IMG/VR virus record: IMGVR_UViG_2660238548_000023
Source of the DNA: a virus
Lineage: Duplodnaviria > Heunggongvirae > Uroviricota > Caudoviricetes
Direction: 5' to 3' (one strand)
Length of the DNA: 10,865 bases
Position numbers and translations under genes: made by a program. This document shows, piece by piece, positions 8,742 through 10,865 of this stretch; positions within the stretch are counted from its first letter, which is position 1, and each line of letters begins with the position of its first letter. A model generated the notes under the pieces. That model searched no databases, was not told where the DNA came from, and worked only from the letters and a program-made list of their open reading frames with translations.

Positions 8742-9209
8742 ATGAACCAGCAGACCACACAACAGGACCAGACCACACGTAAACCATCACGGCGCATACC
8801 GTGGCAGCACATGACAAAGCGGCAGCGAAAAAACCGCAGGAGGATAAACCGACTGGCTGAGTACTGGCCTGAACTGTTTGGGGCAGAGAATATAAAACCC
8901 CTTAAGGCTGGCGTGATACACGATATGTTGCAGGACGCGAAGGCGCGGGAACTGGCGATTGGTCATGGCGTATTACGTGGCGCATTAACCTCACACCTTC
9001 ACACGACGCGATACCTTAAGGCGATTATTGCTGGTGGCCCACGGTACGACCTGAACGGGCAACCTTGCGGCGAAGTCACGGAGAAAGAGAAAGCAGCAGC
9101 CAGCGAACAACTGATGTGGAGGCTGGAGCAGATAAAACAGCAAAACATCCAGCGGCAGGATACGGGAGGTGGTGAGAGTGATAACAGACAGCGTGGCACA
9201 GAAACTTGA
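8742..9209 (+). CDS. ProQ/FinO-domain RNA-binding protein
   Basis: 155-aa ORF. The segment EYWPELFGAENIKPLKAGVIHDML...LRGALTSHLHTTRYLKAIIAGGPRYDLNGQPCGEVTEKE parallels the ProQ/FinO domain pattern (F...PLKIGI..DL...L...L..Y..S..YL.....G..R.DL.G.PCGE). Basic N-terminal extension. Confidence 0.75.
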   Translation: MNQQTTQQDQTTRKPSRRIPWQHMTKRQRKNRRRINRLAEYWPELFGAENIKPLKAGVIHDMLQDAKARELAIGHGVLRGALTSHLHTTRYLKAIIAGGPRYDLNGQPCGEVTEKEKAAASEQLMWRLEQIKQQNIQRQDTGGGESDNRQRGTET

Positions 9210-9471
9210 GGAGCGCGGTTTATGGCGACGTGCGGCGACCCGATGGGCTGAGGTTCTTCTTCACGCAGAAACGGACAGTGAACGCGAGGAAGCTGCCAGA
9301 CGTCGGGCGATATGCATCAGTAAAACCCGTCGTATGCCTGAACAACTGGTCACCTTTGGCGATGTGAAAAAGGCCGCAGACAGAACGCTGAAAGAGATGG
9401 GGATTAATCCGCAGGATGAATGGAAAAATTACAGCTTCAGTGATGCAGGCGACGATTTAGCGCTATCGTGA
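9178..9471 (+). CDS. PerC-family transcriptional regulator-like protein (paralog 1)
   Basis: Contains the GLWRRAATRW motif typical of the PerC/Pch family. Preferred start is GTG 9178 with RBS gggagg at 9164-9169; the ORF track starts at GTG 9169. Overlaps the 3' end of the ProQ/FinO gene. Confidence 0.65.
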   Translation: MITDSVAQKLEERGLWRRAATRWAEVLLHAETDSEREEAARRRAICISKTRRMPEQLVTFGDVKKAADRTLKEMGINPQDEWKNYSFSDAGDDLALS

Positions 9472-9491
9472 TACGCATATCATCGCCGTAT

Positions 9492-9519
9492 TTGCTCAAT
9501 TATCGCGATTCGCTATAAT
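9492..9519 (+). promoter_or_regulatory. sigma70-like promoter driving the hairpin array
   Basis: -35 ttgctc (9492-9497), 16-bp spacer containing the palindrome atcgcgat, perfect -10 tataat (9514-9519). Predicted start around 9526, at the base of the first stem-loop. Confidence 0.4.
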
Positions 9520-9523
9520 CACC

Positions 9524-9924
9524 ACCGAAAGGTCGTTGATGGTGTTCGCCTCGGGCAACTGGAGCCCGACAGCATGAAGCCAGCCAGCGGCTTTTCGGTA
9601 CTCATTTTGATGTGTACTTGTCACACACATCGGGATGAGTGAACGACGAAAACATCACGGTGATTTCGTCATGCCGCGATAAGAATGCGCCTCTTTGGGC
9701 AATTGAAGCCCTCTGTACAGCGGGTTATCGCGGCAAAGTTGTGATAAAAACGCGCCTCTTTGGGCAACTGGAGCCCACTGTAAAGCGGCTTATCACAGCT
9801 GGCGGTAACGGGCGCTCATCTCCGGGCAACTGAAGCCCTCTGTACAGAGACCCGTTACGGCTGACCCTGAATGATTTCTGCCACGTGCAACTGGAGCACC
9901 CGGAGAAATCTTTCAGGGTTTTTT
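9524..9924 (+). ncRNA. candidate structured RNA: five tandem stem-loops with conserved core GGGCAAYTGRAGCCC
   Basis: Unit A stem 9524-9532 / 9591-9599; B 9673-9682 / 9725-9734 (10 bp perfect); C 9737-9747 / 9790-9800; D 9801-9812 / 9851-9862; E 9865-9878 / 9905-9918, followed by T6 at 9919-9924. The stems differ in sequence but stay complementary, while each loop carries a conserved core (9553-9567, 9697-9711, 9762-9776, 9824-9838; E has gcaactggagcac at 9886-9898). Confidence 0.4.
9865..9924 (+). terminator. long-stem intrinsic terminator (unit E plus U-tract)
   Basis: ccctgaa (9865-9871) pairs with ttcaggg (9912-9918), and gatttc (9873-9878) pairs with gaaatc (9905-9910), giving a roughly 13-bp interrupted stem, followed by tttttt (9919-9924). 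It abuts the stop of the convergent minus-strand gene. Confidence 0.4.
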
Positions 9925-10309
9925 ATTGCCCCTCCACCAGCACCACATCTGTAGCATTGATGCGTATACATTCGCCGTCAATTGCACCGTTCCGGCCCTC
10001 ACCGTCACGCACCACAACAGAATGACCAGGCAGGCCATAACGCGCCACCTTTCGACGAACACCATCACCAGCGCCCTCACGACGCTCATACACATTAATC
10101 CGCTCAAGAAGACCATCACGCACCATAGCTTCCAGCGTGCGCCTTGTTGATTCGATCTGATACCGGCTGTTGAATGAATCCATACCATGCAGCAGGTAAG
10201 CCACACCGGAGACATCAAACGGCGGACTGCCAATTTCGGCAGTAACCCACGCCAGATTGTCGGGAGTGAAGTAACTGAGGATCTCTTTTTTGTATTGCGT
10301 CAGTCTCAT
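9923..10309 (-). CDS. hypothetical protein (minus strand)
   Basis: 128-aa ORF, the only convincing minus-strand gene in the window. RBS gaaagg upstream of ATG (10307-10309 on the + strand). Protein-like sequence with no domain recognised. Confidence 0.55.
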   Translation of the reverse strand: MRLTQYKKEILSYFTPDNLAWVTAEIGSPPFDVSGVAYLLHGMDSFNSRYQIESTRRTLEAMVRDGLLERINVYERREGAGDGVRRKVARYGLPGHSVVVRDGEGRNGAIDGECIRINATDVVLVEGQ

Positions 10310-10393
10310 AGTGACCTTTCTTGTTGTAGGATGAATCCCTCATACAATAAGCCATAAGACAAATTTTGAAAGGACAGAATCGGCGGGGTACAG

Positions 10394-10696
10394 ATGATAC
10401 GTGATGACAAGGCTGAAGCGCTGGAGAATAGCGGCCTCTGGCGGCGTGCTGCTGAACGCTGGGGAGAATTGTTCAGACAGGCAAAAACTGATGAAGAGAG
10501 GCACTATATTACCCAACGAAGGGCGCAATGCACGGCAAAAGCCACCAGACCAAAAACAACAGAGTGGGGGCATGTATGCGCCGTCAGGGCAGCAGCGACC
10601 AGAACGCTTAAAGATATGGGGATTGACCAGAAAAAAGAAGATCCTTTACGGGGCACGAAGTACAGGGGTGAAACAGGGCGAAGAGACGGAAGTTAA
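10394..10696 (+). CDS. PerC-family transcriptional regulator-like protein (paralog 2)
   Basis: 100-aa ORF with SGLWRRAAERW and QRRAQC motifs; aligns along its length with paralog 1 (RTLKDMGIDQ versus RTLKEMGINPQ). Confidence 0.65.
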   Translation: MIRDDKAEALENSGLWRRAAERWGELFRQAKTDEERHYITQRRAQCTAKATRPKTTEWGHVCAVRAAATRTLKDMGIDQKKEDPLRGTKYRGETGRRDGS

Positions 10697-10697
10697 T

Positions 10698-10865
10698 ATG
10701 GACACAATAACTGATAAAAAAGCCGAACAACTGGAATCTCAGGGACTATGGCGAAGAGCCGCCGCTCGTTGGCTTGACGTAATGAAAGAGGCCCACACCG
10801 ATCCGCAGCGAGAACATATAGCCAGACGGCGGGAAATATGCCTTGCGAACTTCAGGATGCTGTAA
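10698..10865 (+). CDS. PerC-family regulator-like small protein (paralog 3)
   Basis: ATG 10698 (residue 100 of the 10401-10865 track ORF) begins MDTITDKKAEQLESQGLWRRAAARWLDVMK...ARRREICL. It starts 1 nt after the paralog 2 stop. 55 aa; the stop is the last codon of the window. Confidence 0.5.
   Translation: MDTITDKKAEQLESQGLWRRAAARWLDVMKEAHTDPQREHIARRREICLANFRML

Follow-up and report, generated by a model that had tools for sequence, protein, structure and literature searches.

What brought three genes of the PerC family together at the right end of an Escherichia coli phage satellite, and what might their products do? The genes lie in a 10,865-nucleotide stretch of viral DNA (Caudoviricetes; IMG/VR record IMGVR_UViG_2660238548_000023), called the window throughout. 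This region makes up the right-hand portion of a satellite of ~13.5 kb, found in E. coli, that resembles phage-inducible chromosomal islands (PICIs) and has a P4-type replicon and immunity region. A preliminary description of the sequence presented the genes as three diverged copies suggestive of regulatory cargo, akin to the activators of ler, the master regulator for the enterocyte effacement locus (LEE). PerC-like genes of E. coli satellites have been annotated and discussed in print before, and both the kind of gene and the kind of element are known. The best explanation for their presence here, held as probable, is that the satellite carries three PerC genes of differing standing, with an action like that of PchE and EcCIMP1_025 and a mosaic origin. 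The three genes are:

9178-9471, + strand: PerC paralog 1, 97 amino acids (aa), full length; PF06069, E=2.6e-28, 98.6 bits
10394-10696, + strand: PerC paralog 2, 100 aa, full length; PF06069, E=4.2e-23, 81.9 bits
10698-10865, + strand: PerC paralog 3, 55 aa; PF06069, E=7.1e-16, 58.7 bits

The Pfam gathering threshold for PF06069 (PerC) is 22.6 bits and a chance origin of these scores is out of the question; the paralogs also match PHROG 994 and PHROG 10396. Assignment of the three open reading frames (ORFs) to the PerC/Pch family, made in the preliminary description from a GLWRRAA-RW signature, is thus upheld by the profile search, and the motif GLWRRAAxRW is present in all of them. Alignment with five reference proteins delimits an amino-terminal block common to all aligned members, AExLExxGL(W/Y)RRAAxRW...RR..C, and a carboxyl-terminal block of the family, ..(D/E)(L/V)xKAxxxT...MGI. 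Paralogs 1 and 2 feature both blocks. Paralog 3 has the amino-terminal block only, its match being restricted to profile positions 2-49 of 90, and the carboxyl-terminal block lies out of frame past its stop codon. The paralog 1 start is a GTG at 9178 with the motif GGAGG 8 nt upstream (an alternative GTG is found at 9169), and its TGA stop ends at position 9471.

The AlphaFold2 model of paralog 1 (mean predicted local distance difference test score of 83.5) has five helices and an amino-terminal domain similar to tetratricopeptide repeats (TPR). The ANR_neg_reg model (NF033650) matches over the amino-terminal domain of the three paralogs with E-values of 5e-5 to 5e-4, at sub-threshold scores of 19.7-23.1 bits versus the curated ANR cut-off of 32, which suggests a distant relationship only. 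The PerC-ANR link was likewise noted by Pick et al. (PMC11773190). ANR proteins (AraC negative regulators, which are anti-activators) such as Aar are also small and helical, and paralog 3 has their size, while paralogs 1 and 2 possess an additional carboxyl-terminal domain. If produced, paralog 3 would be an ANR-sized variant composed solely of the amino-terminal domain.

Paralogs 2 and 3 form the tandem that the preliminary description had placed 1 nt apart: the TAA of paralog 2 (10694-10696) is followed by a single T and then by the paralog 3 ATG at 10698. The third copy is as short as had been stated and stops at the very edge of the window, whose final three bases are its TAA. The ratio of non-synonymous to synonymous changes (pN/pS), which relies on small counts for each gene, is 0.25-0.36 for paralog 1 versus its relatives, 0.14 for paralog 2 (2 synonymous and 1 non-synonymous changes versus the related locus L004; loci used for comparison are designated by L numbers) and 0.10 for paralog 3 versus its relative PerC-b (9 synonymous, 3 non-synonymous; 2 and 0, respectively, versus L004). 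These substitution patterns seem to indicate purifying selection on the three paralogs. The paralog 3 frame is open for 99 codons upstream of its start, across nearly all of paralog 2 (10401-10865, + strand), and ~0.5% of codon-shuffled paralog 2 sequences keep it open. In strain E2855, whose DNA at this place is 100% identical to the window, the Prokaryotic Genome Annotation Pipeline (PGAP) calls paralog 2 a pseudogene and annotates a 119-aa 'PerC'; the open alternative frame across paralog 2 makes this call an annotation artefact. The overlap of open frames is not kept in loci L202 and L203, hence it is probably due to chance.

The reference proteins were taken from annotated records: PchE (ECs_1588, Sakai Sp7), PchA (Sp4), PchD (SpLE1), PerC encoded 3' of perB on a plasmid of the EAF type, and EcCIMP1_025 from E. 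coli MP1. Their identities to paralogs 1, 2 and 3 are:

PchE: 48%, 41% and 40%
EcCIMP1_025: 42%, 40% and 57% (amino-terminal domain)
PerC: 39%, 32% and 39%
PchA: 37%, 32% and 42%
PchD: 41%, 33% and 45%

PchE is the closest characterised protein to paralog 1 (48%), and the amino-terminal domain of paralog 3 is matched best by EcCIMP1_025 (57%). Expression of ler and the LEE requires PchABC, while PchD and PchE have little effect on the LEE; PchE is a repressor of csgD and curli (PMC6265319), and its reported activities are repression of csgD and of flagella (PMC6265319, PMC7369912). A LEE1-lux fusion in Citrobacter rodentium is silenced by EcCIMP1_025 and activated by perC from enteropathogenic E. 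coli (EPEC) (PMC11773190). The window paralogs are true members of the PerC family that by sequence group with the non-activating PchE/EcCIMP1_025 type and not with the ler-activating PerC/PchABC. By relatedness they would be of the type repressing curli, flagella or the LEE. Activation of ler by these proteins is unlikely because PerC and PchA are the most distant from them (32-42%) and their nearest relatives do not activate the LEE.

The genetic settings of these proteins differ in parallel. PchE of Sp7 (O-island 51), a capsid-forming satellite of PICI type previously described as P4-like and PchE-bearing (PMC3378721), also belongs to PF06069 and its gene directly follows SSB in a satellite with integrase, primase and SSB. 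Unlike the window element, Sp7 has no ProQ gene, a single PerC gene whose product has 90 aa, and its own capsid and terminase genes. In the PICI EcCIMP1 the PerC gene likewise belongs to a satellite with AlpA, AntA, Icd and primase that ends with a homologue of the 128-aa gene described below, but the primase is of the Toprim/DUF927 type, there is one PerC copy and its position is different. PerC from the EAF plasmid of EPEC and the PchA/B/C proteins of enterohemorrhagic E. coli share with the paralogs the Pfam family, the two conserved blocks and a similar length; they show the lowest identities, and their homes are the perABC operon or the late region of lambdoid prophages instead of the replication operon of a satellite. 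Pch relieves silencing by H-NS/Hha, and the activation of LEE1 that PerC/PchABC achieve in this way (PMC4764244) is not expected for the window paralogs. In the mechanism proposed here PerC would be an all-helical protein of ~90 aa with a TPR-like helical-hairpin amino-terminal domain and no recognisable DNA-binding fold. Proteins of this family most likely act mainly by protein contacts in nucleoprotein complexes, as Pch does against H-NS/Hha.

How three copies came to lie together can be approached through the sister satellites L202 and L203. They encode, in this order, ProQ, PerC-a (99 aa) and PerC-b (87 aa); the PerC tandem comes directly after ProQ and its two genes are 3 nt apart. The amino-terminal half of PerC-a resembles paralog 1 and its carboxyl-terminal half resembles paralog 2, whose carboxyl-terminal part has 89% DNA identity to PerC-a of L202. 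Paralog 2 thus looks like a mosaic of a distinct amino-terminal half and a carboxyl-terminal half homologous to PerC-a. PerC-b is the full-length counterpart of paralog 3. In a global alignment with PerC-b of L202/L203, the lineage of the window and L004 lacks 40 nt that lie between two direct repeats, TTGAGAA and TTGCGAA, a deletion that shifts the frame and leads to a stop after 55 codons. A remnant of the carboxyl-terminal block, 'AVNKTVDDMGIRRDRRHYGLWK*', is found out of frame directly after the paralog 3 stop in L004. Paralog 3 is, by this comparison, a relic of the 87-aa PerC-b gene reduced to the amino-terminal domain, and the check for truncation suggested in the preliminary description gives a positive answer.

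The window is itself recombinant: the match to L001/L005 is 100% for SSB, ProQ and paralog 1, and that to L002 is 100% for paralogs 2 and 3 and the putative winged-helix gene that precedes them. L005 and L018 are 99% identical elsewhere; ~codon 11 of paralog 2 marks the start of a segment, reaching ~150 nt beyond paralog 3, in whose place they have a gene for a 143-aa lipoprotein-like protein, and a 33-codon stub, 'MIRDDKAEALEAQGL...', remains. The replacement gene (L005 19053-19484, L018 14835-15266, in place of the window from 10426 onward) codes for a lipobox LSAC and has weak similarity to YbjQ/DUF4156. The paralog 2/3 spot has the appearance of an exchangeable cargo slot with its left junction inside perC. 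In the history proposed, recombination within perC would have split the ancestral PerC-a of a PerC-a/PerC-b tandem by ~1.2 kb, an insert comprising the carboxyl-terminal half of a foreign PerC (in paralog 1), an array of hairpins, the putative winged-helix gene and an amino-terminal PerC half that is likewise foreign (in paralog 2). Paralog 3 would then have lost 40 nt, leaving the amino-terminal domain only, and paralogs 2 and 3 would be a co-transcribed pair homologous to the PerC-a/PerC-b tandem. The three-copy layout is best read as mosaic recombination between satellites, not as a local triplication.

Paralog 1 has a different standing, which is defined by the genes that precede it:

5961-7784: D5/Pox_D5-type (D5/P4-alpha-type) primase (Pfam)
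8276-8725: SSB (Pfam)
8742-9209, + strand: ProQ/FinO-domain protein, 155 aa (PF04352, E=2e-24)

There is a 32-nt overlap between the 3' end of the ProQ/FinO gene and the start of paralog 1. The arrangement (SSB-)ProQ-PerC is found in satellites from E. coli, Salmonella and Pluralibacter, whose primases are of either the D5 or the Toprim/DUF927 type and whose ProQ stop is located 11-17 nt inside the PerC start (L201-L208, around 4520-5300). The order is primase-SSB-PerC in Klebsiella/Enterobacter-type satellites, and pchE is found 10 nt after SSB in Sakai Sp7. Paralog 1 is accordingly the last gene of a conserved primase-SSB-ProQ/FinO-PerC replication-module operon, in a position equivalent to that of PchE in Sp7, and not variable cargo; it is probably translationally coupled. 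The pairing of ProQ and PerC recurs beside two unrelated types of primase, suggesting that PerC and an RNA chaperone are functionally linked. The view of the three genes as diverged copies of cargo is consequently not supported, with paralog 1 in a core operon and the layout resulting from mosaic recombination.

Several points weigh against the explanation favoured here. Pch is reported to associate with promoter DNA, and a mechanism relying on protein partners only is not established. Identity to characterised members is just 40-57%, a level at which relatedness does not tell an activator from a repressor or an inactive protein. The history of recombination is a single parsimonious interpretation, drawn from few loci. 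Finally, no cos/pac site and no rpp, terS or capsid genes were found, so that the helper-dependent mobility of the element is presumed.

Other explanations have been put against the same data. The reading implied in the preliminary description, that the three paralogs are virulence-regulatory cargo activating ler/LEE1 and rewiring LEE-positive Shiga toxin-producing E. coli (STEC) or EPEC, agrees with their genuine PF06069 membership and with an element present mainly in STEC-type strains. Gram-negative PICIs commonly carry PerC variants, and some PICI-encoded PerC homologues are said to activate the LEE (PMC6092414). It is nevertheless quite improbable, since the known activators are the least similar proteins (PerC 32-39%, PchA 32-42%), the nearest characterised relatives are non-activating or repressing (PMC6265319, PMC11773190) and the carboxyl-terminal half is missing from paralog 3. 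A limited likelihood is granted to the possibility that the PerC genes serve the satellite life cycle, effects on the host being by-products, and that paralog 1 works with the co-translated ProQ/FinO chaperone, for example in controlling satellite or helper-phage expression after induction. The location of PerC after, or overlapping, ProQ or SSB in many satellites of several genera with two primase types, a position and coupling that are conserved while true cargo varies, and the signs of purifying selection speak for such a role. PerC is, however, also found outside satellites (perABC of the EAF plasmid, lambdoid prophage Sp4, island SpLE1), it is located away from the primase in EcCIMP1, and a PerC-ProQ contact is without evidence.

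It is very unlikely that paralogs 2 and 3 are functionless recombination debris and that only paralog 1 matters. In favour of this reading, paralog 3 is truncated by a frameshift, the paralog 2/3 cassette is dispensable, being replaced in the 99% identical sisters that keep ~10 paralog 2 codons, and a consensus promoter was not found. Against this stand an intact paralog 2 with both conserved blocks, few substitutions that are mostly synonymous, a 1-nt spacing that keeps translational coupling, and the existence of a functional class, ANR, of amino-terminal-domain-only proteins of paralog 3 size.

Expression of the paralog 2/3 pair may be linked to the gene and spacer that precede it:

9923-10309, - strand: gene for a putative winged-helix protein of 128 aa, converging on paralog 1 and diverging from paralog 2
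10310-10393: divergent intergenic region of 84 nt with the imperfect palindrome TTGTAGGATGAATCCCTCATACAA, read from the sequence

The preliminary description had correctly identified the 128-aa gene as divergent from paralog 2, the two starts being 84 nt apart. Its homologues are the terminal gene in related satellites, and its product has no match in Pfam, PHROG, NCBIfam or PADLOC. The spacer has a weak promoter-like site for paralogs 2/3, TTGTTG-16-TACAAT; the consensus promoter scan lists none in 10310-10393, and no consensus sigma-70 promoter was detected in the scan of 8900-10865. A regulatory role of the spacer is presumed, with divergent transcription of paralogs 2/3 probably under the control of the putative winged-helix protein. 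PADLOC gave no match that would assign a defence role to the neighbouring genes.

What is most unusual in the region is none of the PerC genes but a hairpin array in the spacer between paralog 1 and the convergent 128-aa gene:

9524-9599, 9600-9640, 9645-9670, 9672-9735, 9737-9800, 9801-9862 and 9863-9920, + strand: seven consecutive hairpins, from folding

On the + strand the 450-nt convergent spacer folds with -194.7 kcal/mol and z=-8.1; for the minus strand z is -5.5. A T-run, TTTTTTA, follows the last hairpin at 9920-9926, and this hairpin is likely the intrinsic terminator of the + strand proQ-perC1 operon. Five of the seven hairpins display the apex GGGCAAYTGRAGCCC (at 9553, 9697, 9762, 9824 and 9885, with 0.25 copies expected) at a spacing of 61-65 bp, about six helical turns. 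Their outer stems differ, and the two arms are mutually complementary in each. No Rfam match was found at 9472-9935 with 4227 covariance models at E<=1.

A hairpin of ~60 nt with 88-90% identity to 9672-9735 occurs once, always on the antisense strand, in genes for LPD38/LPD5 'polyvalent proteins' of 2000-3600 aa, carried by Stx-type and other enterobacterial prophages (L017 5995-6071; IMG/VR loci L139-L200). In these giant phage genes the apex encodes (S/R)RGLQLPK and the arms encode residues that vary from phage to phage yet stay complementary. The satellite copies are in differing frames with stops, hence non-coding. Some giant genes have two adjacent copies of the hairpin and RGLQ(L/S)PK (L182 3412-3526; L039 4709-4790), so that the unit is found duplicated outside the satellite as well. 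A sigma-70 consensus promoter was not found upstream of the phage hairpin.

Covariation supports folding of the motif. The mean energy of native hairpins is -30.8 kcal/mol versus -21.4 +/- 4.1 for chimeras of 5' and 3' arms. An ungapped alignment of 10 sequences has 85% paired cells versus 34-51% when partners are slid, and 8 of its 11 stem pairs show compensatory changes; the covariance-model alignment of 32 distinct copies has 89% versus 24-53%, and compensatory changes in all 11 outer pairs. The covariation score is 0.476 versus 0.195 in shuffles (reached in 0 of 500), for an alignment that was fitted to the model. G-U outnumber A-C pairs by 39 to 7, an excess pointing to the motif strand (+ in the window, antisense in the phages) as the one folded. 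MAFFT combined with RNAalifold on 24 hairpins recovered just the 4-bp apex, with stems out of register. Matches of a 19-nt degenerate apex pattern in 596 Gb of genome contigs were nearly all due to chance and in unrelated taxa, only those in Pectobacterium (L039) and Edwardsiella (L045) looking real, while the scan of viral contigs with the apex pattern was informative.

A chromosomal repeat of the REP/BoxC type was rejected as identity of the hairpin, which has a median of one place per genome and is found in just 420 of 5426 genomes. An obligatory link to the ProQ or putative winged-helix gene was also rejected, as L201-L208 and L006-L013, satellites of other lineages, have the genes and no motif. 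The small RNA HnrS is an unlikely identity: it is present three times in O157 lambdoid prophages (PMC13502914) and the motif is single in most O157 genomes.

That the 400-nt array, located in the 3' untranslated region of the proQ-perC1 operon, is an RNA device aimed at helper phages is rather unlikely. Were it so, the five satellite hairpins would present the apex GGGCAAYUGRAGCCC, complementary loop-to-loop to the site in the phage giant-gene mRNA; alternatively, the array's target for mimicry or titration would be an antisense RNA of the phage or a protein binding that RNA. FinO assists FinP-traJ, and the FinO/ProQ-type chaperone of the satellite could similarly assist an interaction of hairpin and phage RNA. 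The array may also be a protein-binding or processing site, or mimic a packaging signal. If the device is real, it would represent a new RNA-based interaction between satellite and helper, by sensing, interference or packaging mimicry.

The remainder of the window confirms the location of the PerC genes on a mobile island, as the preliminary description had it, and encodes:

1-1254: tyrosine integrase (Pfam)
1338-2057, + strand: ORF of 239 aa between integrase and AlpA, 'hypothetical' in relatives (WP_001123241.1)
2299-2502: AlpA (Pfam)
2569-3288: Rha/AntA-type regulator (Pfam)

The 239-aa ORF product has no match in Pfam, PHROG or NCBIfam. Rfam identifies two C4 antisense RNAs and two isrK-like RNAs within 4292-5039. 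They form a duplicated immunity-type module (4279-5040) in which each C4 RNA (4471-4558 and 4952-5039, 70-73 bits) has an isrK-like RNA upstream (4292-4369, 4848-4926) and a c4 a1/b1 target-like site. A 507-aa ORF spanning this region (3281-4804) is probably spurious; relatives have Icd/ash fragments annotated there. Nine exact TGTTCACC octamers are clustered directly after the primase gene (7798-8018) and three further near-exact copies extend the set to 7798-8026, in both orientations. The cluster is presumed to be the replication origin, its octamer being what we take to be the P4 type I iteron.

Among 5426 complete E. coli genomes, 112 contain the block 8200-10865 with 96-97% identity, where the NCBI annotation reads 'PerC family transcriptional regulator (x3)', and 13 contain the entire window. 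Hosts are mainly STEC-type strains from cattle, food and patients. The element adjoins tRNA-Gly beside the ETT2 remnant in L001, L004 and L005, and occupies an alternative site, yicC-dinD, with a different integrase in L002 and L018. Its limits were taken from L004 and L001; past the window end it codes for a 53-aa ORF, a Q-family antiterminator (PF06530) and a 124-aa ORF. In L004, short direct repeats lie 3' of paralog 3 (19620-19700), namely CGATCA[CT]AAAA and GCGCAAAAAACTGCGCAAA, L202 having 12 nt more, and several ~50-nt repeat copies, CCGGAACAAGGAA..TTACGAAAATTTCGTAA, lie near the right end of the element (21100-22560). These repeats beyond the window end could be att- or packaging-related.

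Integrase, AlpA, a primase with adjacent iteron origin, a size of ~10-15 kb and no structural or lysis genes found in the full element are as in a PICI. The element shares with Gram-negative PICIs of the EcCICFT073 type and P4 the integrase, AlpA, primase and adjacent iteron origin, a size of ~13 kb, the lack of lysis genes, integration beside a tRNA gene and an immunity RNA of the C4/CI type; likeness to satellite P4 is limited to replicon, immunity RNA and integrase. It differs from them in having no Rpp homologue, lambda cosN, P2/P4 cos or psu/delta/sid. Searches for lambda cosN and P2/P4 cos across the full element gave chance-level or no matches, and the psu-delta-sid capsid-hijack module is absent from the window and the L004 annotation. 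Rpp proteins, which redirect packaging, have 144-153 aa with a winged helix-turn-helix and a coiled coil (PMC6739421). No Rpp-like protein was found in PDB sequence searches with paralog 1, paralog 2, the 128-aa profile and the 143-aa protein of L005, and a PerC or 128-aa protein as Rpp homologue is rejected at the sequence level by zero PDB matches. The element is called PICI-like since no packaging device was found.

Inventories of STEC virulence genes should not list the PerC copies of the window among the ler activators. New with respect to what was known of this kind of gene are a core module of ProQ and PerC, a mosaic origin for the three-copy layout, the truncation of paralog 3 and the undescribed covarying hairpin. 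The gene perC would act as a recombination joint that shuffles the right ends of satellites. In the replication operon of a broad range of satellites PerC is syntenic with SSB and ProQ/FinO, which points to a role in satellite biology, and in ProQ-PerC an RNA chaperone and a small helical regulator form a pair open to testing. The strongly covarying hairpin shared with giant phage genes could open a new angle on the cross-talk between satellites and their helpers.

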